A DNA stretch of 64,000 nucleotides, from the IMG/VR virus record IMGVR_UViG_3300009130_000002. One strand, 5' to 3'. Source of the DNA: a virus. How positions within the stretch are numbered: position 1 is the stretch's first letter; each line of letters opens with the position of its first letter. This document shows positions 3 through 60,313 of this stretch, one piece after another. Position numbers and translations under genes: made by a program. The notes below the pieces were generated by a model, which saw only the letters and a list, made by a program, of their open reading frames with translations, did no database searches and had not been told where the DNA came from.

Positions 3-1730
3 TTTTATACAGAGGATGCAGCAGACGGCGTACACACCAAGGCAGTTATCAGAAATAACCTAACAGGAACTGGAGATTATTTGGTTCTTGAAGGCACTAA
101 GAGTGGCGGAGGAGCTATCAAGCCAGAGCTGGTAAAAATTGGCCAAGGAGCGTTGGAAATTTTTGGTAATCTAAGGGTTGAAGACACAGTAACAGGTACT
201 GGACCTTCTGGATATCTAGAGTTGGGTTCAGATATAGATATGAATCTAAACAGTATTCATAATGTTTCAATTGCACAAATCGCAATAATCAATGGCTTGA
301 ATACAGTTAATTCCCTTGATGGAGATATCCACTTTATAGATACAGATGTAGTTATCCAAGGTGGCAGTAATCAAAATGGAGATCTCACTGTTGCAGGAAA
401 CCTGGATGTAGGTGGCACGGCAGAACTAGACGGTTTAGATGTGGATGGTAATGCAGAGTTCGGATTTTATGATGGTAATTATAATCCTGTAGGAACTGAT
501 ACAACCTTTCTTGTGTATGGTGGCCCACATACTGAACCTAACTTAAGTTCAAGAATTCATGGACCACGAGTGAGAGGTTCAAATTATTCTCGTTTAACGA
601 TTGAATGCAGGGATCCTATTAACGAAAAATTATGGCACGAAAGCAATCCTCATCCAGATATGACAGATTATACTGGGGGTGAATGGATAAGTACCAGTGG
701 CAGCACTGCTCTTCCTTGGGGAGATGGTGGTACTGGAGAAATGAGTCCAGTAAGTGGTCCTGTCTTGTCTTTCGATAGTTGGCAATATGGTCCTGGCGGT
801 GATGCCGGTATGCCTTATCCAGTAGAACGTTACTTTATAAGAGATACTGTTGCGAACTTCCCCTGGTATACATTCCACGCTGGAACAGCAGATCAGTATG
901 ATGTTCCAGGTCAAGCTACCTTACGGTGGTCAACCAATAATACAGGACTGCGTATATGGCCAGACTGGATACAGGTGGGAGATGAGATTCGTGTAGCTCC
1001 TGGTGGTGAAGGGTTCTTAGATACCAATGGCACAACTTATGAATGGGCAACTGTTCTTGACGTTGATAATGTCAATAAGCTAATTAAACTGGATAGGGAT
1101 ACTGTATATGCTAGTCCAGCAACACAAGAGTTAAAAGTCAGTCCAAAAAGAAAAGATATCACTAGCTGGGAGATCTATAAACAAAGTAGCCCCGTAAATA
1201 TGCATAGTGGAGCTGGTAAAGCTTACACTGCTGATATCTGCAATCTTGATGAGTTTGAAACCCTCAATTTCAGACCCATTATGAGAGTGTATACTAACGA
1301 ACAAATTGATGAGCCAGATGGTAACTTACCACCTGCAGGAATTTACACTAGCGTACCGGTTCCTACGGATGTCGCTTTTCGTATTCGATCTGATGGGAAA
1401 GTAGAAGCTAAAACAACTTATTTAACAGGTTCCTCCAGGAATATAAAACAAAATATTGAAAACCTATCAGAAGAAAAATCTAGTTTAATATTAGAGGGAT
1501 TACAACCAGTAACATTTGAATATAAAACAAGTCCTGGTGAATCTCGTATAGGTTTTATTGCAGAAGATGTTCCAGAATATGTTGCTGAAAAAAATAGAAA
1601 ATCAATTTCAACATTAGACATTGTTGCAGCAATAACTGGAGCCCTTAAATCACAAAGTGAAAAGGTAAAAACCCTTGAAAAAGAAATTGAAGATATGAAA
1701 CAACTATTACAAAACTCAGGAGTAATTTAG
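3..1730 (+). CDS. Tail fibre/spike protein with C-terminal intramolecular chaperone (peptidase S74); 5' end truncated by the window
   Basis: Frame is open from base 3 (FYTEDAADG...), so the true start lies upstream. C-terminus SSRNIKQNIENL...LQPVTFEYK...RIGFIAEDV...coiled coil matches the S74 autocleaving chaperone (S-x4-K dyad). Confidence 0.85.
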   Translation, partial: FYTEDAADGVHTKAVIRNNLTGTGDYLVLEGTKSGGGAIKPELVKIGQGALEIFGNLRVEDTVTGTGPSGYLELGSDIDMNLNSIHNVSIAQIAIINGLNTVNSLDGDIHFIDTDVVIQGGSNQNGDLTVAGNLDVGGTAELDGLDVDGNAEFGFYDGNYNPVGTDTTFLVYGGPHTEPNLSSRIHGPRVRGSNYSRLTIECRDPINEKLWHESNPHPDMTDYTGGEWISTSGSTALPWGDGGTGEMSPVSGPVLSFDSWQYGPGGDAGMPYPVERYFIRDTVANFPWYTFHAGTADQYDVPGQATLRWSTNNTGLRIWPDWIQVGDEIRVAPGGEGFLDTNGTTYEWATVLDVDNVNKLIKLDRDTVYASPATQELKVSPKRKDITSWEIYKQSSPVNMHSGAGKAYTADICNLDEFETLNFRPIMRVYTNEQIDEPDGNLPPAGIYTSVPVPTDVAFRIRSDGKVEAKTTYLTGSSRNIKQNIENLSEEKSSLILEGLQPVTFEYKTSPGESRIGFIAEDVPEYVAEKNRKSISTLDIVAAITGALKSQSEKVKTLEKEIEDMKQLLQNSGVI

Positions 1731-1734
1731 TGAA

Positions 1735-2139
1735 ATGGCAAACATAGTTAAAAAGGTAGATCGAGGAGTCGCAACGGCTCAACGCACACAAAACTTCACT
1801 CAAGCAGATATAACTGGAGATGGAGATATACTCAAGATTCAAGAATCCTTAGGGAAAATGGCAACACATATTGTAATTGAAGTTCCAGGTGGTGGAGGCA
1901 GCATGACTGTTAGGTTTAATGTTATCAGAACAATCTACCCGAACAGAACAAAAGAAGAATATGATTGCCTATATCCAGAAATGTATAAGAATCTTGCCTT
2001 GGGGCAAGAAGTAGAAGATACTACTGGAGCATTGGTTACAATTGGTGCTGGTGAAACATTCGAGCTTGACAATGATCTACCTGTCAAAGATATTAAGATC
2101 GTATCTGCATCTACCAATTTCGATATTTTCGTATGTTAA
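1735..2139 (+). CDS. Hypothetical protein, possibly virion-associated (134 aa)
   Basis: ORF tightly coupled to the upstream fibre gene; beta-rich composition; no recognisable motif. Confidence 0.6.
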   Translation: MANIVKKVDRGVATAQRTQNFTQADITGDGDILKIQESLGKMATHIVIEVPGGGGSMTVRFNVIRTIYPNRTKEEYDCLYPEMYKNLALGQEVEDTTGALVTIGAGETFELDNDLPVKDIKIVSASTNFDIFVC

Positions 2140-2149
2140 GGAGTGTCTT

Positions 2150-2488
2150 ATGGCTAGAAAAAATAAACAAGCCAGTATTTCATTAGAAATAGATGGTGAA
2201 CAACTAGAAAAAATTGCAGAAAAAATGGCAATTACTATAGGTAAAGAACTAGCCAAGGCCCTATCTGGAGGAGTTTCAGTAAGTACAAAAAGTACTGGAT
2301 TTAAGTCTTCTGGTCAGATACAAGATATTGGTGGGGTAAGTATTGATGAATCAATCATCCCAATGAAAGTAGAAGCAACCCTAAGCTCAACAAGCAAAGA
2401 GCTGGGCAAAGAAGAGAAATCAGAAGACAAAGGTTTATCTGATTCTAAGAAAAAATTAGCAAACCTATTTAAGAAAAAAGGAGAGTAA
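2150..2488 (+). CDS. Hypothetical protein (112 aa), candidate partner of the actin-like ATPase
   Basis: ATG at 2150 follows AAGGAG (2138-2143), a better start than the track's 2042. Low-complexity middle and basic C-terminal helix (KKKLANLFKKKGE). Stop is 3 nt before the actin-like gene. Confidence 0.65.
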   Translation: MARKNKQASISLEIDGEQLEKIAEKMAITIGKELAKALSGGVSVSTKSTGFKSSGQIQDIGGVSIDESIIPMKVEATLSSTSKELGKEEKSEDKGLSDSKKKLANLFKKKGE

Positions 2489-2491
2489 GAA

Positions 2492-3490
2492 ATGCCCAAA
2501 GGCCTTGATGTGGGAACTTCTTTTCTAATCACTGCAGAGGAAACTCTAGAAGGAGTATCCTACAAAGAGATGCGTGATGCATTTTACAGAATGAAACCAG
2601 CAACAAAAATTGCTGCCAAGATGATGGAAAGAGGATTACAGAACCTTACCTACCTAAAAGACGTTGACGGGTCCTATGTTGTCGTAGGAGCTGATGCAAT
2701 TGCCAAAGCAATAGAAAGACACCAATCCGCACAGCGGCCCCTATACAGGGGTGTTATTAGCCCCAGAGAGCCTGATGCTCGAAGGGTGCTTAAGTTTATT
2801 TTAGCCGAGCTTGTCGGTAAACCACAAACCCAAGGAGATACCCTTGTTTACTCAATTCCTGCTGAACCTGTTGATCAATCTGACGAAGACTTTAATACCG
2901 GATACCACGAAGATGTACTTAGAAAGGATCTTGGTGAACTTGGTTGGGATGCTAGAGCACTCAATGAAGCGGAGGCTATCTGCTATTCTGAGTTAGAAAA
3001 TGAAGACTATACTGGAATCTGTATGTCCTTTGGAGCGGGTATGGTTAATGTATGTGTTATGTCTTCTGGAGAACCAGTAATCAAGTTCTCTACTACAAAA
3101 TCAGGAGACTGGGTAGACAGAATGGCAGCCCAATCCACTGGACAGCCAGATAGTATTGTTCAAGTTGAAAAAGAAGAAGGTGATTTCACTGTAGGAGAAG
3201 AGTCAGAGAATCCAATCTTGTCTGCAGTAAGTTCTTATTATGTAAGACTTATTGATTACACTACACAACACCTGGCATTACGGCTTTCAAATAGCAATGA
3301 CCTTCCTAAATTCCAGGGACCTATCCCTGTGGTGGTAAGTGGAGGAACTAGTAGAGCAGGCGGATTCGTAGAAGCATTCCGCAAGAGGATGTCTCAAGCT
3401 GATTTTCCTTTAGAAATCAGTGAAGTACGTCATGCAACAGACCCCTTAAGAGCTGTTGCTAGGGGCTGCCTACTCGCAAGTATCTTGTAG
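2492..3490 (+). CDS. Actin-like ATPase (MreB/MamK/Mad28-like actin fold)
   Basis: Phosphate-1 GLDVGTS, connect-1 LNEAEAICY, phosphate-2 MSFGAGMVNV, adenosine motif VVSGGTS and connect-2 AVARGCL appear in canonical actin-superfamily order in 332 aa. Confidence 0.85.
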   Translation: MPKGLDVGTSFLITAEETLEGVSYKEMRDAFYRMKPATKIAAKMMERGLQNLTYLKDVDGSYVVVGADAIAKAIERHQSAQRPLYRGVISPREPDARRVLKFILAELVGKPQTQGDTLVYSIPAEPVDQSDEDFNTGYHEDVLRKDLGELGWDARALNEAEAICYSELENEDYTGICMSFGAGMVNVCVMSSGEPVIKFSTTKSGDWVDRMAAQSTGQPDSIVQVEKEEGDFTVGEESENPILSAVSSYYVRLIDYTTQHLALRLSNSNDLPKFQGPIPVVVSGGTSRAGGFVEAFRKRMSQADFPLEISEVRHATDPLRAVARGCLLASIL

Positions 3491-3492
3491 TA

Positions 3493-3501
3493 TGCTATAC
3501 T
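3493..3501 (+). promoter_or_regulatory. Extended -10 promoter (TGcTATACT), probably leaderless for the 3508 gene
   Basis: TGCTATACT followed by 6 nt and then the ATG at 3508; no SD sequence. Confidence 0.45.
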
Positions 3502-3507
3502 ATTCGA

Positions 3508-3735
3508 ATGGGGAATTCGAATAACACTTCAATAGATAGATTGGACGGGCTCAAGCTCGTTTATGACCTTCAAAAAAATGAGGAAGAAGTCTCATCCGTT
3601 AAGCTGATGAAGATAAAGTCCTATATACTTGATTGGTTAGAAAAGCAGGAATATATTTCTTGGAATGAGAATAAAACAAAAGCTTCTATAACTGATAAGG
3701 GGATAGGGTATCTTGCTGAACGAAAATGGATTTAA
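3508..3735 (+). CDS. Small winged-helix-like protein (75 aa)
   Basis: C-terminal LDWLEKQEYISW...ASITDKGIGYL resembles a wHTH recognition helix plus wing (xxTxKG). Confidence 0.45.
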   Translation: MGNSNNTSIDRLDGLKLVYDLQKNEEEVSSVKLMKIKSYILDWLEKQEYISWNENKTKASITDKGIGYLAERKWI

Positions 3736-4088
3736 TATGGCTTAGCTAAACCTTCGTTGATCATTAAGCTATTTACACAGATCCAATCTGGGCTTGTAGT
3801 ATAGATCTCTCCAAGGTAGCGTCCGTATTTTCCTTTCTTATCTTTGACTGTCTCAAGAGCAATCTCTTTTCCAAGGACTAGTTCCTCTAGCCTATTTTTT
3901 GCCTTCATACCTGCCTTGTATTCCTCTGAGTCTTTTTTAACTCCATAGGTTTCAGGAGTATTTATCCTGGCGAGACGTATTCTTTCTTTCACAAAGACAT
4001 TCATCCCTAGATCAATCTCTAGGTCTACTGTGTCTCCATCTACTACTCTAACTACAGTAGCTTTATATAGGTAATAGTTCCTCTGCAT
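3732..4088 (-). CDS. Staphylococcal-nuclease (SNase/thermonuclease)-like protein
   Basis: VVRVVDGDT, IRLARINTPE, KYGRYLG and NSLMINEGLA motifs. Start moved to MQRNYY (4088), downstream of the previous gene's stop. Confidence 0.9.
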   Translation of the reverse strand: MQRNYYLYKATVVRVVDGDTVDLEIDLGMNVFVKERIRLARINTPETYGVKKDSEEYKAGMKAKNRLEELVLGKEIALETVKDKKGKYGRYLGEIYTTSPDWICVNSLMINEGLAKPY

Positions 4089-4101
4089 TTGCTTTCTCTT
4101 T

Positions 4102-5961
4102 CTACCTGCAAATATCAGTGAACATATCTTTGAGCATATCGACATAGGAACTCACATCATTTACAAGAATATTTTTTATTTTATTTGGATCAGACTCCAC
4201 TACAGGCAACCACATTTGTGTAAAGATAGGCTTTGTAATGACAAAGAATTCATATATATCACCGGCAGTGCAGTCACCAACTGTACAATGATTTGAATAT
4301 AGTGCAACATCTGATGGGCTTACGTTGGTCATTGTTTGTCCAACCTCATCTGTCATTAATATAATGTATGGATGAGCATCTTCTCTCCAATTGATCCCTA
4401 TTGGATCTTCAGGCATACAAGCCATATATGAAATATCATATGTGTACTCATAAGATCCTCCATTTGCTTGCAATCCACCAAGAATACCAGTTAGTTGATT
4501 TACATCTACTAGCATATTCCCAGGGACTCCAGTTCTTATCTCATAGGTATTACTGCCAGCGTATCCTACACTTGTTGTAATTAAACCAAACTTATGTTCA
4601 GTGCCTTGAAAATCAGAGACATACAGCCCCAATGCATGCGATAAAGCATCAATATAACTCTGCATAGAGCCAGAGATATCAACAACAAATATTATATCAA
4701 CCTTGTCATGTGGATCTAGTTCCTCATCAACTAAGCCGTCACAGTCATTATCGAGACCATCACAGAATTCCTGTTCAGGATGGACCTCACCAATACATTC
4801 AGAGTAGATACCCATTTCACATTCAGTTTGCCCAGCCCTGCATTCTCCAATACCAACTAGCTCTGGATTATCTGAACAGGGAAGAACGATTCCATCTATC
4901 TCTCCATCGCAATCATCATCCCATGCATTGCAAACTTCTGGTAAGGTTCTAACAAAAAAACAATCTCCATACTCTCCATATATATCGCAGTATTGTATCC
5001 CTTCCCCACAGGGATAGGGAGCACCCAGTTGTTCTCCTGTATTGATATCGAACATAGGACTTTCCACACAGATTTGCGTATCTCCAAAAGCGCATGGACA
5101 GCCTTCGTCTACTTCCCCATTGCAGTTATTGTCTACACCATCGCATAGTTCTTGACTTGGCTCTGGAGCTGTACAGTTATACCAATCTCCACTGTAGCAA
5201 ATCTCTATTCCCTGACCACATGCTGTCTCACATAATTGATATATGTTGTTATCCTTGATTCCATCACAATCATTATCAATATTGTCACATGTTTCTGCCT
5301 GAGGATATTCTGCTCCCACACAAGTCAGCTCACCATTAACACAATGGTTTTGTCCATAAGAACAAGCACCCCAATTGGTTTCTGGTCCACAAATGGTTGG
5401 AATAATATCTTCATCAATTAATTCGTTACAGTTATCGTCTATGCTATTGCATAGTTCGTCAGCTCCTGGATTGATATGTGGGTTGTTATCATCACAGTCT
5501 CCATCACAAACTGGATATTGATCATTATCAATATCAGCTTCATCTTGAGAAACATGACCGTCACAATCATTGTCTAGATTATCACATAGCTCTGGGGCTC
5601 CTGGATAAATGGTATTATTTCCATCATCACAATCCCCATTACAGGTAGTGAAGGTATCTTCGTCTAGATCATAACCATCATCAATTATCTCGTTACAGTC
5701 ATTGTCTATCCCGTCACAAATGTCTTCTGACGGACGTACAAATCCCTCACAAATAATTGAATTTTCTCCTGTACATTGTACTGTTCCGGTTTGACATGCC
5801 CCAATGTTGAGTGTAGTGTACTCGGGACTTTCAGGCTCAAGTAATTGAACTTGATCGTCAACAATTATGCAGGCCTTTGTAGATGGACAGTAATTTAGAA
5901 TGTCTTGATTGCTGCAGCTGATAAGAGAAATAGCAACAGCCAGGGAGAGCAATACCCTCAT
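4102..5961 (-). CDS. Predicted lipoprotein with seven Cys/Asp-rich MopE-related repeats and a C-terminal vWA domain
   Basis: Signal peptide with lipobox-like LISC. Seven E-x-C-[DN]-x-x-D-[ND]-[DN]-C motifs. MIDAS DISGS in VDIIFVVDISGSM; later ILMTDE. Strong SD AGGAGG. Confidence 0.85.
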   Translation of the reverse strand: MRVLLSLAVAISLISCSNQDILNYCPSTKACIIVDDQVQLLEPESPEYTTLNIGACQTGTVQCTGENSIICEGFVRPSEDICDGIDNDCNEIIDDGYDLDEDTFTTCNGDCDDGNNTIYPGAPELCDNLDNDCDGHVSQDEADIDNDQYPVCDGDCDDNNPHINPGADELCNSIDDNCNELIDEDIIPTICGPETNWGACSYGQNHCVNGELTCVGAEYPQAETCDNIDNDCDGIKDNNIYQLCETACGQGIEICYSGDWYNCTAPEPSQELCDGVDNNCNGEVDEGCPCAFGDTQICVESPMFDINTGEQLGAPYPCGEGIQYCDIYGEYGDCFFVRTLPEVCNAWDDDCDGEIDGIVLPCSDNPELVGIGECRAGQTECEMGIYSECIGEVHPEQEFCDGLDNDCDGLVDEELDPHDKVDIIFVVDISGSMQSYIDALSHALGLYVSDFQGTEHKFGLITTSVGYAGSNTYEIRTGVPGNMLVDVNQLTGILGGLQANGGSYEYTYDISYMACMPEDPIGINWREDAHPYIILMTDEVGQTMTNVSPSDVALYSNHCTVGDCTAGDIYEFFVITKPIFTQMWLPVVESDPNKIKNILVNDVSSYVDMLKDMFTDICR

Positions 5962-5991
5962 ACCCTTTTCCTCCTGGTTGTGAAGAACTAA

Positions 5992-6702
5992 CTATTTGGC
6001 GATAGTCTTTTTAATAAATTCTCTTATCTCATCTACAGGGACTGCTAATGCAGTTTCATGAATGCCGAGGGGTTGTACAACAACCATCCCTACGACCTCA
6101 CCGTTTCTCAATACGGGAGAACCACTGTTTCCTGCTTCGATATTAACGGCTATAAAAATCATATCACTAAATTGCTGAAAACGATAGGCAAGAGAGGAAA
6201 TAATTCTCCCTTCTCTTCTTACTGGAAAGAATCCACGAGGTGCTCCAATGATTGTGACCTCATCTTCAGTAGATAATTCAGCTACTGACTCTGCAAGAGA
6301 CAATGGTTCCATTCCATGATCAATAGATTCTATAATACAAATATCGTTAGGTCTGTCATACCCAACAATTCTTGCAAGGATAGGGGTTCTGGGCATACCT
6401 CTTTTATCTGAACGAACAAGAAGAACCTTTTCACCAACTAATCCCTGAGCAAATAAAATAGAACTAGATTCGCAAAAATGACCAGCAGTTAATAAATGCC
6501 TTTCATCAATTGCAAAGCCTGTGGCAGTTCCACCACCATGACCTTTTTTCCCAGGAGTAGACTGAAGCAAAGCAACAGAGTTGTAAAACTTAGTCTTTAA
6601 TAAGCTATTGATTTTATTTGGAAACCTGCTACAAGAAATACAAGACACAGTTAGAGTTAGACCTAGTGAAACTAGTGCCAACAAGTTCTTCATTTTTATC
6701 AT
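5992..6702 (-). CDS. Trypsin-like serine protease (S1), probably secreted or lipid-anchored
   Basis: Catalytic triad contexts LTAGHF (His), PNDICI (Asp), GNSGSP (Ser). Hydrophobic N-terminus ending VSCISC. GGAGG SD. Confidence 0.88.
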   Translation of the reverse strand: MIKMKNLLALVSLGLTLTVSCISCSRFPNKINSLLKTKFYNSVALLQSTPGKKGHGGGTATGFAIDERHLLTAGHFCESSSILFAQGLVGEKVLLVRSDKRGMPRTPILARIVGYDRPNDICIIESIDHGMEPLSLAESVAELSTEDEVTIIGAPRGFFPVRREGRIISSLAYRFQQFSDMIFIAVNIEAGNSGSPVLRNGEVVGMVVVQPLGIHETALAVPVDEIREFIKKTIAK

Positions 6703-55946: not shown

Positions 55947-56131
55947 GAGGATTCCTTTGCCTTTTCATCATCATTAGAAGGTTCAGGAAGTCCTTTGTGG
56001 ATACAGTATCCAGCACCTGCAAGAATAAATAATGGCCAAGCATGTATAAATAAATATAAAATGCCTACCCCAATTGAAATTCCAATTCCTAATGAGATTA
56101 AGTTAAAATTAAAGTTATTGTCTTTGTCCAT
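55943..56131 (-). CDS. Small membrane protein (62 aa)
   Basis: Central hydrophobic segment; overlaps both neighbours. Confidence 0.5.
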   Translation of the reverse strand: MDKDNNFNFNLISLGIGISIGVGILYLFIHAWPLFILAGAGYCIHKGLPEPSNDDEKAKESS

Positions 56132-58754
56132 TTTTTATATGGTCCAGTTTAGTTATAAAGTTTTCAATATTATCAATTGCAAAAGAATACAAGGGGTTGA
56201 ATTTTGTTTTGTCTTTAGCAATAAACGTTAAACAAACTTCACTTGTTGAGCCTTTATATTCCTTTACTAAATTGATAATTTTTTCCATATGTTCAATTGG
56301 GCATTCAATAACTGTTTTGCTTGCAGTGTCTAATGATTCTAACTCTAATGGTTGTATTTTTTCAATGATAAATTTAGTTATTTTTTCATTTTCTGTACTA
56401 GTAACCTCTGTTGAGCCAATAAAGACCAAGGGTACACCTTCTTGTAAGTGCTCCTTGCATCTTGTATAGTTCCGAGGAAAACAGACTGCTTCAATACTTC
56501 CCGTAAGATCTTCTAAAACAAAAAAGGCCATTTGTTTTTTAGATTTAGTTGTAATCTCTTTTATATTTGTAATTACTGCACCAAGATTAACTTTAATTTT
56601 GCCGGTAAATTCTTTTAAAGAATCTATACTAAAGAAATTTTTAGAATAATTTTTTGGATCAAAATTTCCAAGAGGATGATTTGTTATATAAAACCCAAGT
56701 AACTCATATTCAGCTTGATATAATTCTTTTTCACTTAGCTCTGGAAGACAATTAATTTCTGGAAACTCAGGTTCTTCTGGCATAACTGGAAGCTTAAAGG
56801 GCTTTAATGTTTTGCCTTTATCAGATAGTATTCCATTCTCAATATCATTTAGACGTTTATTAAATGCCTCTAATTTACGATGATAGGTCTCCATTTTTCT
56901 TTCATAGGATTTTTGATTTTTTCTGTAATCCCAGACAAGAGTAATGGCCTCTAACAAAGAGGCTCTACTTCTACCTAAAGAGTCGAAACAACCTGACTTA
57001 ACTAATGATTCAATTTTTAGCTTGTTGATAACAGAAAGGTCTACTCGCTGAGAGAAATCTTCAAAGTTTTTAAAAGGATTCCCTTCTCTCTCCTGCATGA
57101 TTGTGGCAACGGGAGTTTCTCCGAGGTTCTTAATGGGGCTTAATCCAAAGCGAATGTTATCATCACCATCAACATAAAATAAATTTTTACTTTTATTGAT
57201 ATCTGGAGGCAGAACATTAATCCCTATGCGACGACACTCTGCCAAGCACTTAATCATCTCATCTCTGTTGCCAGATTCAGAGATCATTACTGCACACATA
57301 AATTCTCTTGGATAATGAGTCTTTAACCATGCAGTTTGATATGTAATGTAAGCATAAGCTGCAGCGTGACTCTTATTAAATGCATAGTCACTAAAGGCAA
57401 CGATATCATCCCAGATTTTATTAGCCTTATCTAGTGGATAACCGTTAGCTTCCCAGCCTTTTTTAAAGGCTTCTTCTTGTTCTTTAAGGGTGTCGGTTTC
57501 TTTTTTTCCGATGGCACGTCTGAGAAGATCAGCATCGGCCATACTAAAACCAGCAAGCTGTTTAACAATTTCAAGGACTTGCTCCTGATAAATAATCCAT
57601 CCAGCTGTAGGTTGTAGAATGGGTTCTAGTTCTGGAATTAAATATTTTGGCTCACTATTGCCTGCTCTAATATCAAGATAGGTTTCTTTATAATCAGATC
57701 CTAAAGGACCAGGACGATAAATAGCAACCAAGGCAATAAGATCTTCAAGACAATCCGGTCTAATCTGAACAAGAAGGTCTCTCATACCAGAGCTTGCTTC
57801 TAATTGGAAGACTCCAGTTGCATTACCTTGCCTTAGGTTCTTGTAAGTTTCAGGATCGTTGAGATCAATAGAATCAATAGTAAAATCTCCCACGTTGTCA
57901 TGTCGTTCCTTAATTAAATCAACACATCTGTGGATTTTACTTAGAGCATCTAGTCCTAGGAAATCAAACTTGATCAGACCATACTGTTCAATGTTTTTCA
58001 TTTCCCACTGAGTGGTTACTTCTCCACTCCTACCTAAGAATAGAGGTACAGTATTGTGCAAGGAATCATTTGAGATAACAATTCCAGATGCATGTACCCC
58101 GGAACTGGAGATAATATCTTCCAGCTTACAAGCCCAGCGTAATGTTTCACCTTCAGGTCCATTTGATTTACTATATTGTCCTAATTTTTTAACTTTTTCA
58201 ATTGAAGTTTCTAATTTTTGTGGCTTACCATGAATAGGTTCTAGCAATAATCTAGAAAGCTCATCACCTACAGAGTAAGGATGTCCTAATGTTCTTGCAA
58301 CATTTCTTACCGCAGCCTTGGCTCTTTGTAAATTAAATGTTCCAATGTGGGCAACACGGTCGTCACCATATTTTTGAGTAACATAATCTATAACCCTATC
58401 TCGATATCGTTTCTCGAAATCAACATCAATATCAGGCATAGATAAACGAGCAGGATTTAGAAAACGTTCGAAAATTAACCCGAGTTTTATAGGGTCTAAG
58501 TTTGTAATCCCCAAACAATAACAACAGAGACTACCAGCTCCTGATCCTCGACCAGGACCAACATAGATATCGTTTTCTTTTGCCCAGTTAATAAAGTCTT
58601 GAACAATTAGGAAGTATCCAGAGTACCCCATCTTATGAATGACAGAGATCTCATAATTCAACCTATCTATATACTCTTGATCTGTATGTAAATTTTTATT
58701 TTTTAATCCGCTTAAGCATTTGAATTTAAAATAGTTATCAAGAGTTCTCCCCAT
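56115..58754 (-). CDS. dnaE: DNA polymerase III alpha, C-terminal polymerase part (palm/fingers/HhH/OB) of a split gene
   Basis: GPGRGSGAGSL, RLSMPDIDVDF, HASG, KFDFLGL, YAFNKSHAAAY and a C-terminal OB fold; lacks the PHP domain. Confidence 0.95.
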   Translation of the reverse strand: MGRTLDNYFKFKCLSGLKNKNLHTDQEYIDRLNYEISVIHKMGYSGYFLIVQDFINWAKENDIYVGPGRGSGAGSLCCYCLGITNLDPIKLGLIFERFLNPARLSMPDIDVDFEKRYRDRVIDYVTQKYGDDRVAHIGTFNLQRAKAAVRNVARTLGHPYSVGDELSRLLLEPIHGKPQKLETSIEKVKKLGQYSKSNGPEGETLRWACKLEDIISSSGVHASGIVISNDSLHNTVPLFLGRSGEVTTQWEMKNIEQYGLIKFDFLGLDALSKIHRCVDLIKERHDNVGDFTIDSIDLNDPETYKNLRQGNATGVFQLEASSGMRDLLVQIRPDCLEDLIALVAIYRPGPLGSDYKETYLDIRAGNSEPKYLIPELEPILQPTAGWIIYQEQVLEIVKQLAGFSMADADLLRRAIGKKETDTLKEQEEAFKKGWEANGYPLDKANKIWDDIVAFSDYAFNKSHAAAYAYITYQTAWLKTHYPREFMCAVMISESGNRDEMIKCLAECRRIGINVLPPDINKSKNLFYVDGDDNIRFGLSPIKNLGETPVATIMQEREGNPFKNFEDFSQRVDLSVINKLKIESLVKSGCFDSLGRSRASLLEAITLVWDYRKNQKSYERKMETYHRKLEAFNKRLNDIENGILSDKGKTLKPFKLPVMPEEPEFPEINCLPELSEKELYQAEYELLGFYITNHPLGNFDPKNYSKNFFSIDSLKEFTGKIKVNLGAVITNIKEITTKSKKQMAFFVLEDLTGSIEAVCFPRNYTRCKEHLQEGVPLVFIGSTEVTSTENEKITKFIIEKIQPLELESLDTASKTVIECPIEHMEKIINLVKEYKGSTSEVCLTFIAKDKTKFNPLYSFAIDNIENFITKLDHIKNGQRQ

Positions 58755-59226
58755 GTCTTTTTCTTTCTAGCTCCTCTAGGAACCAGTTACGCATCCAGGT
58801 TTTGGGCCAAGGATATAAATAATGTTTTGATAGTAATTTTACAACCCAATCAACATCTGTTTCGTTTTCAATGTTGGCTTCAAGATAAGCTTCTCGTTCA
58901 AATTTCCACCGAAAATAAGAGAACAAGAACGGCAAGGGACATAATAAGTATAAAAATAAGTATAGCGGAACTCCATATTGATTATATTGTTTTACATGTA
59001 CCATCTCATGCTTAACTATCTTGTAGTGTCTAATAGATAGTGGAGACTTAACTCCTGTTGGATAGTAAATCTTATTACCAATTGTAGTCCAAAGATTTGT
59101 CATAAATGCAGGATAAATCAAGCCGATAATTCGCATTAACAAAGAATTCTTCTTATTGATAAACTCTACATCTTCATCAATATATCCACCAAATCCCTTT
59201 TTAACTCGTAAGGTCACTCTGCGCAT
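58738..59226 (-). CDS. HExxH zincin-like protein (DUF4157/eCIS-core-like) between the two dnaE halves
   Basis: WTTIGNKIYY...KHEMVHVKQY...FEREAY. Start MRRVTL at 59226 after GGAG...AGGGA. Confidence 0.65.
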   Translation of the reverse strand: MRRVTLRVKKGFGGYIDEDVEFINKKNSLLMRIIGLIYPAFMTNLWTTIGNKIYYPTGVKSPLSIRHYKIVKHEMVHVKQYNQYGVPLYLFLYLLCPLPFLFSYFRWKFEREAYLEANIENETDVDWVVKLLSKHYLYPWPKTWMRNWFLEELERKRHGENS

Positions 59227-60313
59227 TCCCTTTACTCCATTCTCTAAATTGTTCATAGTCTGGTTCTTTAGTGATATCAAAATAAGGCATCTGATATTCT
59301 CCTAAAGTAATATTCAGGTTGCACATCTTAGGAATCTCTAAGGTATTATAAAAAGATTCCTCTGAACCTATTTTTTGAGCGGCTTCAAGCATTTCTTCAG
59401 GAGATCTGAGGTAAACACCGTCACCATATACATCAGTTTTATTACACCCATCTTCGTCACCTTCATACTCATCAAGAGTCTTTTTAAACTGCTGTGCCAT
59501 GATTAAATTGTGTGCTCGCTTGTCTTCCTTTGTTAAGAAGTGAGCATCAGCAGTAATAACAAGAGGAATATTTTCTGTTTTAGATGTTTTAATTGCCCAG
59601 TTATTAAATTTTTGCTGAGCTGGCATAATATTATCTTGTATTTCTAGGTACAATCTCCCATCAAAGATATCATAAAGCTTATTTAGTCTTTTTAAGGCAA
59701 ATTCTTGATAATCATAAGGTTTTAGTTTTTCATTAACATAATTTTGCATTGCTAAATCGTATTCTTCTTGAGATAACCCTTTTCTTGTGGGTTTTTTAGG
59801 GAATCCCTTCTTTGCAATGACTCCTCCGAGACAAGCAGTCGTAGCAACAATGCCTTCAGCTCTTGTTTCGAAATGCTTTTCCCAAATTCGTGGTTTATAA
59901 TAAAAATTATGTAAATTTGCTTGGTTTGTCATCCAAATAAGATTCTCAAAACCTTTTTCATTCATGGCTATGAGAATCATATGGTTGTTGTCTTTAGTTT
60001 TGACTTCAGAGTCGTCAGGATCTTCTGTGACGTAAGCTTCGACACCAACTAAGGGGTTGATTCCATATTTCTTTGCATGTTTGTAGAACTCAATAGAGCC
60101 GTGCATAACACCATGATCAGTAAGAGCACAAGAACTCATGCCTAATTCGACTACTCTTTGACAGAGCTTGTCAATTTTATTTAAACCATCAAGGATACTG
60201 TATTCTGAATGAACATGTAGGTGACAAAAGTCTTGAGACATTACTTCTTTTTTTCTTTCTTTTCTATTGCTGCATAGTGAACCTGTATAGTTACTTCGCA
60301 AGCAAGTTTCCAT
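59201..60313 (-). CDS. dnaE: DNA polymerase III alpha, N-terminal PHP domain as a separate ORF
   Basis: HLHVHSEYSILDG, LTDHG, GVEAY, NNH, TACLGG, TADAH; ends at the PHP/palm linker (LGEYQMPYF). The likely start is MSQDF, a little inside the track ORF. Confidence 0.92.
   Translation of the reverse strand: METCLRSNYTGSLCSNRKERKKEVMSQDFCHLHVHSEYSILDGLNKIDKLCQRVVELGMSSCALTDHGVMHGSIEFYKHAKKYGINPLVGVEAYVTEDPDDSEVKTKDNNHMILIAMNEKGFENLIWMTNQANLHNFYYKPRIWEKHFETRAEGIVATTACLGGVIAKKGFPKKPTRKGLSQEEYDLAMQNYVNEKLKPYDYQEFALKRLNKLYDIFDGRLYLEIQDNIMPAQQKFNNWAIKTSKTENIPLVITADAHFLTKEDKRAHNLIMAQQFKKTLDEYEGDEDGCNKTDVYGDGVYLRSPEEMLEAAQKIGSEESFYNTLEIPKMCNLNITLGEYQMPYFDITKEPDYEQFREWSKGNAQSDLTS

Follow-up and report, generated by a model that had tools for sequence, protein, structure and literature searches.

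Layout of the locus

The DNA analysed here is a stretch of 64,000 nucleotides (nt) from a virus, a large uncultured marine phage (IMG/VR record IMGVR_UViG_3300009130_000002), called the window below. Two adjacent plus-strand genes near its start encode a 332-amino-acid (aa) actin-fold ATPase and, directly upstream, a 112-aa protein that would serve as its adaptor. An earlier note on this DNA, made from the letters alone, had proposed an actin-like ATPase with a coupled partner gene. The coordinates and the layout that it gave for the two open reading frames (ORFs) were confirmed (Table 1), including the 3 nt between the adaptor stop codon and the actin ATG. The Shine-Dalgarno site of the actin lies within the last codons of the adaptor, which indicates translational coupling. 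Signal counts for a promoter or terminator of the pair's own were not above those of shuffled sequences. Related loci that were compared with the window carry L-numbers, and L177, L178, L186, and L187 are its closest relatives.

Table 1. Position of the actin and adaptor genes, their sequence features, and the adjacent genes in the window.
Feature	Position	Strand	Remark
Tail-fibre gene	3-1730	+	C-terminal S74 chaperone domain
ORF, 134 aa, without family	1735-2139	+	directly upstream of the adaptor in the window's sub-clade
Adaptor gene, 112 aa	2150-2488	+	ATG at 2150 behind an AAGGAG site
Adaptor N-terminal helix, aa 16-40	2195-2269	+	AF2 pLDDT 81-93; basic stretch before it
Central adaptor motif V-S-I-D-E-S-I-I-P	2336-2374	+	family consensus [VI]xID[ED]xx[FY]V[TP]
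Adaptor C-terminal helix ...KKKLANLFKKKG, aa 94-111	2429-2482	+	consensus S..KLAxLKKxKG; presumed actin-binding peptide
Shine-Dalgarno site of the actin, AAAGGAGAG	2477-2485	+	inside the last adaptor codons (K-G-E)
Volactin-family actin-fold ATPase, 332 aa	2492-3490	+	PF25216 match
Phosphate-2 loop I-C-M-S-F-G-A-G-M-V-N-V	3017-3052	+	Ser179 replaces the Asp of MreB, MamK, and ParM
ORF, 75 aa, outside the module	3508-3735	+	kept in L177 and L178 alone

With moderate confidence, we read the two genes as a cytoskeletal module of the phage, in which a polymerising Volactin-type actin would be captured by the tail of its adaptor.

Family, fold, and motifs of the actin

The 332-aa protein matched the Pfam family Volactin (PF25216) with 219.5 bits (cut-off 35, E 1e-64), and the alignment spanned actin residues 1-329 and profile positions 1-320 of 321. 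Its scores for MreB_Mbl (14.2 bits, cut-off 27), for the NCBIfam MamK model (22.6 bits, cut-off 400), and for the salactin model were below threshold. No ParM-family match was found in Pfam or NCBIfam, and no PDB chain matched by sequence. The AlphaFold2 (AF2) model, built from a 36-row alignment, had a predicted local distance difference test (pLDDT) value of 95.9 and a predicted template-modelling score (pTM) of 0.92. Foldseek returned MamK (5ljv), BeeR (8r2n), and MreB (4czj) as the top solved structures, with E values of about 1e-14 and template-modelling (TM) scores of 0.66-0.72, and EutJ and Hsp70 folds appeared lower in the match lists. Among the BFVD viral structures there was no close match; the best had TM scores of about 0.6 and were Bacillus phage G gp506 and Hsp70s.

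All five actin-fold motifs that had been read from the sequence were located: phosphate-1 (D6-x-G8-T9), connect-1 (N158-E159), phosphate-2 (S179-F-G-A-G183), adenosine (G284-G285-T286), and connect-2 (G325). The departure of the phosphate-2 motif from DxGxG, which the earlier note had pointed out, is real, but it is not a peculiarity of this protein. The form S-x-G-x-G-M is a signature of the whole family and is common to its haloarchaeal, planctomycete, Omnitrophota, acidobacterial, and phage members and to those from metagenome-assembled genomes (MAGs) of magnetotactic bacteria (MTB). Further signature elements are GGT[SA] in the adenosine motif, NE[AG]xA in connect-1, and [SG]GD[WY]xD. The window actin carries the complete set (S-F-G-A-G-M, G-G-T-S, N-E-A-E-A, and S-G-D-W-V-D), whereas the MreB/MamK-like proteins of the same genomes have D-I-G-x-G-T, GGG, and EP instead. 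Residues D6, G8, E159, G181, G183, G205-D206, D209, and G284-G285 were invariant across members that share 32-75% identity, and the ratio of nonsynonymous to synonymous substitution rates (dN/dS, or omega) against relatives of 93-99% identity was 0.03-0.04. The protein starts with M-P-K-G-L-D, three residues before the first strand, and has no N-terminal extension. It belongs to the Volactin family and has an actin fold with an intact nucleotide site.

In some homologues an intein sits exactly within the phosphate-2 loop or at the SGDW motif, as is typical of essential active sites. Two phage actin forms of about 700 aa (P0133 and P0121) have such insertions with Cys ... His-Asn/Cys junctions; one interrupts the phosphate-2 loop (S-[intein]-C-G-A-G), and a second lies between T-K and [S>C]-G-D-W. 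An intein-like split-match pattern was seen in at least 12 of the 150 listed actin representatives. Other architectures, found in P0126, P0145, and P0125, are a 729-aa tandem fusion of two volactin-type actins and forms with long acidic or basic N-terminal extensions; the extended forms are possibly adaptor-actin fusions.

The window actin most likely polymerises into dynamic filaments, because volactin and Mad28 polymerise and the nearest folds are filament formers. Volactin of H. volcanii forms dynamic filaments whose tips touch the membrane (PMC10869688). Mad28 was shown to polymerise in vitro, to assemble into filaments in E. coli, and to bind liposomes (PMC10653835, PMC12713370); its hallmarks are a Ser for Asp in phosphate-2 and the missing connect-1 Pro, and it still polymerises (PMC10653835). 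An actin of the polymerising kind had been predicted for this locus, and the structural neighbours (the MamK, BeeR, and MreB filaments, not kinases or Hsp70) agree with it. The Ser in place of the canonical Asp, together with the lower-ranked EutJ and Hsp70 folds, could also be taken as the mark of a non-polymerising ATPase of the acetate and sugar kinase/Hsc70/actin (ASKHA) superfamily, e.g., an accessory protein that resembles a chaperone or EutJ and has the partner gene beside it by chance. However, the same Ser-type loop occurs in the polymerising Mad28 (PMC10653835), the top structural matches are filament-forming actins, and the Volactin match is full-length, the founding protein of that family being a filament former. 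Nor is the neighbour there by chance, given its co-conservation in about 70 of 83 phage loci. We give such an enzyme almost no credence.

Distribution and phylogeny of the actin

The search yielded 1803 homologous protein clusters at E<=1e-3, with 998 representatives at 50% identity, and at least 428 IMG/VR loci carry the actin. In the scan of viral contigs an alignment query found loci and a single-protein query found none; the genome scan used an alignment of 11 sequences. Within 50,697 GenBank phage records the only matches were two uncultured huge phages (485 and 595 kb). Cellular members (30-37% identity) were found in Planctomycetota, Acidobacteriota, Halobacteriales, Omnitrophota, Nitrospirota, and Desulfobacterota MAGs. 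Plasmid matches were limited to haloarchaeal megaplasmids, where volactin paralogues were seen on pHBOR01 of Halogeometricum borinquense (L188) and at H3-H7. One of these megaplasmid paralogues is annotated 'cell division protein FtsA', with a DUF7139 gene upstream and an archaea-specific SMC-related gene nearby.

A profile hidden Markov model (HMM) search and a phylogeny, as proposed in the earlier note, were carried out. The quick maximum-likelihood tree had 85 rows; outgroup row L167, a wrongly extracted ORF on a very long branch, is to be disregarded. The Volactin family split from the MreB and MamK-like proteins with a support of 99 in the Shimodaira-Hasegawa-like approximate likelihood ratio test (SH-aLRT). 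The window actin fell inside a phage clade (support 95), which grouped with Halobacteriales and Planctomycetota (SH-aLRT 98) and not with the clade from magnetotactic MAGs. PF25216 members of MTB MAGs were 32-34% identical to the window actin and formed a separate, more distant subclade, and their neighbourhoods were not recognisable magnetosome clusters. The resemblance to Mad28/MamK-like actins, which the earlier note had suggested, holds in part: Mad28 is consistent through the Ser-type phosphate-2 loop and the missing connect-1 Pro, but the nearest named family is Volactin (PF25216) and not MamK.

Omnitrophota MAGs from studies of magnetotactic bacteria, L125 (3986-5098 and 4993-6186) and L131, carry two tandem PF25216 genes behind a gene of ~100 aa with a hydrophobic C-terminus; response-regulator and CheX genes follow. 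In Nitrospirota MTB MAGs a ParA/MinD-like ATPase gene was observed near the PF25216 gene.

The longest contig that bears the exact window actin protein is 192 kb, so a 'jumbo' label for this phage is borderline. CheckV estimated the IMG/VR records of L012 and L042 (G001 and G002; 200-211 kb) to be only 61-65% complete; the genomes of some phages with the actin may therefore be much larger than 300 kb.

Sequence and predicted structure of the adaptor

No family in Pfam, PHROG, or NCBIfam matched the adaptor, and a search of the ESM Atlas gave no usable match. Its omega, which like that of the actin indicates purifying selection, was 0.10-0.21 against relatives of 93-99% identity. The AF2 model consists of a helix at residues 16-40, a disordered segment at 41-93, and a second helix at 94-111. 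The pTM was 0.26, which implies that there is no globular fold. The basic, Lys-rich C-terminal helix expected for this protein is thus predicted at residues 94-111.

An HMM of those phage partners that carry a transmembrane helix matched the adaptor at aa ~52-110 with 18-19.6 bits, compared with a maximum of 7.8 bits in 500 shuffles, and the adaptor was its sole match among all window ORFs. Across 35 diverse partners, I65 and D66 of the central motif were at least 90% conserved and L103 in the C-terminal helix was invariant. The C-terminal segment was nearly unchanged in close relatives, and the linker was variable and disordered.

A complex model of the ATPase with its 112-aa neighbour had also been suggested. 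It was run with adaptor residues 55-112 and scored 0.33 (best of three controls, 0.02), a result read as weak support. Of 80 solved complexes 58 reached the mark applied, as against 2 of 110 mismatched pairs; among scores of 0.60 or under, however, the mark was passed by only 7 of those 80 complexes and by both of the mismatched pairs that had passed at all. At least 44% of the contacts agreed between runs, and the partner pLDDT was at least 46. From the conservation and this weak pass we infer that the adaptor tail binds the actin. The contact would be made by the basic C-terminal helix, possibly together with the central IDE..IIP motif.

Conservation of the partner and loss of its membrane anchor

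A homologous small gene (85-126 aa) stands directly upstream of the actin gene in about 70 of the 83 phage loci. At least five unrelated gene neighbourhoods flank the pair among these loci, and in two lineages (L025/L031 and L080/L081) genes are inserted between partner and actin. The two-gene module is widespread among aquatic phages. The adaptor is a co-inherited homologous partner of the actin, as had been proposed for the 112-aa gene.

In about 40 of 49 distinct partners the N-terminus forms a hydrophobic helix (19-residue Kyte-Doolittle mean >=1.5) and basic residues come after it, an arrangement that makes these partners single-pass anchors with a cytoplasmic tail. The window adaptor reaches a maximum 19-residue hydropathy of 0.92, compared with 1.5-3.1 in most members, and has no transmembrane helix. 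There is no room for an upstream start codon ahead of its ATG. Deeper members of its clade keep the transmembrane helix: L181, L182, and L185 (ATG start, 77% actin identity), L003 (GTG start), and L006. It is absent from the window, L177, L178, L186, and L187, where the start is the Met that follows the helix in relatives; L178 has an in-frame stop 9 nt upstream of the adaptor ATG. The transmembrane helix is lost in the window's sub-lineage. A separate case is L004, where the in-frame stretch before the adaptor ATG (5587-5649) still reads as a hydrophobic helix without an ATG and with a GTG 12 codons before, so that this adaptor has either lost its transmembrane helix recently or uses a non-canonical start.

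The N-terminal helix of the window adaptor is conserved in close relatives, and the same segment follows the transmembrane helix in L181, L182, L185, and L003. A membrane-binding amphipathic helix, considered for the adaptor that lacks the transmembrane segment, was unsupported, as the hydrophobic moment fell within the range of shuffled sequences.

The same segment bears on segregation of the ParMRC type, in which the adaptor without a transmembrane helix would bind phage DNA by its basic N-terminus (MARKNKQ...) and the actin would separate genome copies, e.g., in a plasmid-prophage state. The layout does resemble ParR/ParM and AlpA/AlpC, with a small, co-transcribed adaptor and a C-terminal actin-binding helix. 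However, neither a ribbon-helix-helix nor any other DNA-binding family in Pfam or NCBIfam matched the adaptor, AF2 shows one long helix and not a beta-alpha-alpha fold, and relatives have this N-terminal segment just after the transmembrane helix; on these three grounds a ParR-like ribbon-helix-helix N-terminus was rejected. An iteron or centromere-like repeat array was not found in 1500-3900 either, the family is absent from plasmids save the haloarchaeal megaplasmids, and the genome, which has replication machinery of its own, looks like that of a large tailed phage of the lytic type. Segregation of this kind is very improbable.

Proteins upstream of the cellular actins were also compared. 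In 4 of 4 haloarchaeal loci the gene of a DUF7139 protein lies upstream of volactin. It corresponds to the CdpA-like HVO_2016, in which a linker joins the transmembrane domain to the C-terminal domain and which is a paralogue of the FtsZ-ring anchor (PMC12126565). The motif [KR]L..[LMF][KR] occurred in the last 30 residues of 4 of 57 cellular upstream ORFs, all from Planctomycetota, versus 1.6% of control ORFs. Upstream proteins of 247-556 aa from Planctomycetota (L098, L106, L111, and L121) end in helices of the KL..[LM][KR] type, like the phage adaptor tail. The HMM of the phage partners was not significant on the cellular upstream proteins, and the shared tail is there a lead only. Volactin tips touch the membrane, Mad28 binds liposomes, and most phage partners are anchors; membrane tethering is thus a recurring theme of the family.

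Proposed role of the module

In the module as we read it, the 112-aa protein would be the translationally coupled adaptor of the actin, and its N-terminal part would set the site at which the filament is attached. In most relatives the single transmembrane helix would tether the filaments to the inner membrane, and the tethered filaments would, most plausibly, organise or position replicating phage DNA. In the window's sub-lineage the transmembrane helix has been lost and the juxtamembrane helix kept, and the pair has moved into the tail-fibre (late) block; the adaptor may here be soluble or peripheral.

Organising phage DNA or its replication through tethered filaments is the most likely cellular role, because of the gene neighbourhood in the relatives and the precedent of AlpA/AlpC. 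In the clades with a transmembrane helix, the pair is found among RecA/UvsX, DnaB, 5'-3' exonuclease, PolA, RuvB, and IMPDH/GMP-reductase genes. AlpA and AlpC of prophage CGP3 are an upstream adaptor and an actin that are needed for efficient phage DNA replication (PMC4446434). The transport or positioning system put forward in the earlier note is likewise a hypothesis.

Most phage adaptors being membrane anchors, the actin and adaptor could also serve host take-over, remodelling the infected cell (its shape, its size, or a block of division) and leaving phage DNA aside. Timely rod-to-disk transitions depend on volactin (PMC10869688), Mad28 is a membrane-binding protein that senses membrane curvature (PMC12713370), and the protein encoded next to haloarchaeal volactin is paralogous to CdpA, which anchors the division ring. 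Yet the module of the relatives clusters with replication and recombination genes and not with known host take-over genes, the window adaptor lacks the anchor, and no host-protein mimicry was detectable. We regard host take-over as unlikely.

Several observations weigh against our reading of the module. In the window the module is surrounded by tail-fibre genes instead of replication genes, and the adaptor is without a membrane anchor; what the relatives suggest about its role may therefore not hold in this phage. The window adaptor shows no recognisable cargo-binding domain, and its N-terminal helix is not significantly amphipathic (hydrophobic moment 0.49, versus 0.57 at the 95th percentile of shuffles). 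Some of the conservation at the C-terminus, namely that of the terminal K-G, may be due to the overlapping ribosome-binding site, which does not explain the helix further upstream. The predicted complex is only a weak pass, and polymerisation and binding rest on inference. No cultured phage among the GenBank records carries the module.

Genomic setting in the window

Four plus-strand genes (134, 112, 332, and 75 aa) are tightly packed behind the tail-fibre gene, with intergenic gaps of 3-17 nt, and further large fibre-like genes stand after the actin/adaptor pair. In the window's clade the pair lies behind a clade-specific 134-aa gene and is surrounded by virion and tail-fibre genes. Virion structural genes precede it in L003 and L004, where the genes downstream are those of a ribonucleotide reductase (RNR)-like protein and a glycosyltransferase.

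This setting would suit a part in virion assembly or positioning, where the filament scaffolds or transports tails, fibres, or capsids in the window's lineage; such a role would explain why the pair moved into the tail-fibre block and why the membrane anchor was lost. The packing of the pair on one strand between the S74-chaperone tail-fibre gene and large fibre-like genes, its place behind structural genes in L003 and L004, and the co-conserved, clade-specific 134-aa gene are in line with it. Gene position is, however, weak evidence in a mosaic phage genome, and most other clades place the pair among replication genes. Moreover, the adaptor motif occurs in no other window ORF, and the downstream genes in L003 and L004 (RNR-like and glycosyltransferase) speak against it. 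A virion-assembly role appears quite improbable to us, and the organisation of phage DNA is preferred.

The 134-aa gene was found by tblastn in L003, L004, L006, L177, L178, L181, L182, and L185-L187, with an omega of 0.05-0.07 against close relatives. It matched no Pfam, PHROG, or NCBIfam family, was absent from the loci of other phage clades, and had no similarity to the similarly placed ORF of huge phage LR756511. The 75-aa gene had been considered as a possible further component. It is 66-69% identical in L177 and L178 and absent downstream of the actin at every other locus. Being syntenic in only the two or three closest relatives, it is therefore not part of the module. Its best Pfam match was a sub-threshold winged-helix domain (E 0.023).

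After the 75-aa gene, a convergent minus-strand cassette (3732-6702) encodes an SNase nuclease, a 619-aa MopE-repeat/vWA protein, and a trypsin-like protease. The cassette interrupts the plus-strand late block and is kept in L177 and L178. Its SNase-type nuclease (PF00565, phrog_452; 3732-4145, minus strand) is a recurrent neighbour of the actin: in another phage clade, at L011, L016, L017, L043, L044, L049, and L052, a homologue (32-40% identical) lies directly downstream of the actin on the same strand. The remaining window ORFs encode fibre-like giants, a primase-helicase, a DNA polymerase, an RNR, PhoH, and an endolysin; the window therefore comes from a large tailed phage that encodes replication machinery of its own. 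Two minus-strand ORFs, 56115-58754 and 59201-60313, appear to be the parts of a split DNA polymerase (phrog_405) and cover profile positions 335-1138 and 29-345, respectively. The 180-aa ORF between them (58738-59280) may be an inserted mobile gene.

Significance and comparison with known systems

We found no paper on a phage volactin or Mad28-type actin or on its adaptor. To our knowledge, among cytoskeletons built by phages the PhuZ tubulin is well studied and AlpC is the sole characterised phage actin. An actin with hundreds of phage members and an adaptor of its own points to a common, undescribed way in which large aquatic phages organise the infected cell. It also places phages in the same actin family, marked by a Ser-type ATP site, as haloarchaeal volactin and probably the magnetosome actin Mad28, and it suggests a general tethering rule for volactin-type actins, i.e., a C-terminal peptide on a protein encoded upstream. 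The window adds a natural adaptor variant without a transmembrane helix and the relocation of the module into a late tail-fibre region, a direct contrast of anchored and unanchored forms.

A broader interpretation is offered tentatively, as a possibility that we hold with less than even confidence. Large aquatic phages may build their own actin cytoskeleton from a volactin/Mad28-type actin and a dedicated adaptor tail, as the actin counterpart of PhuZ. The targeting end would be exchangeable, being an anchor in most phages and lost here, which would retarget the filament off the membrane, and an upstream gene that encodes anchor, linker, and C-terminal peptide would then be an ancient trait that archaeal, bacterial, and phage members share.

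PhuZ of nucleus-forming jumbo phages is likewise a phage-encoded cytoskeletal polymer, and it positions phage replication. It differs in belonging to the tubulin superfamily, in having no membrane-anchor partner, and in occurring in a different phage group.

ParM/ParR shares the combination of an actin and a small adaptor from tightly coupled genes, and the C-terminal helix of a ParR-type adaptor inserts into the actin. In contrast, the phage pair has no ParM-family match, no ribbon-helix-helix, and no centromere repeats, and its adaptor gene comes first.

Mad28 was compared by its published description. The phage actin has S179 and N-E-A-E-A, which match the described Ser for Asp and the absent Pro, and MAGs of magnetotactic Nitrospirota, Desulfobacterota, and Omnitrophota contain PF25216 genes, some of them in tandem. 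Mad28 probably belongs to the same actin family as the phage actin. Mad28 has an N-terminal extension of its own, about 48 aa with an amphipathic helix, unlike the phage actin, and it is encoded in a magnetosome gene cluster and not in a phage genome.

Volactin (VolA, HVO_2015) of Haloferax volcanii belongs to the same Pfam family, PF25216, and shows the same signature motifs as the phage actin. In both cases the product of the upstream gene, HVO_2016 (DUF7139, PF23600) in the archaeon, consists of an anchor at the N-terminus, a disordered linker, and a short element at the C-terminus. The two actins share about 36% identity, however, and the host is an archaeon and not a phage. The phage partner is about 100 aa long with one transmembrane helix (none in the window) and is not a DUF7139 protein, so that the architecture is analogous only. 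Volactin has a known role in cell shape and no known link to DNA replication.

AlpC/AlpA of Corynebacterium glutamicum prophage CGP3 was likened to the module by layout and function. AlpA binds DNA, whereas the adaptors described here have a membrane anchor or, in the window, no recognisable cargo domain, and CGP3 is a temperate actinobacterial prophage as opposed to a large aquatic tailed phage. In both, a phage actin is co-transcribed with an upstream actin-binding adaptor, and AlpC/AlpA is the best functional precedent for the module.

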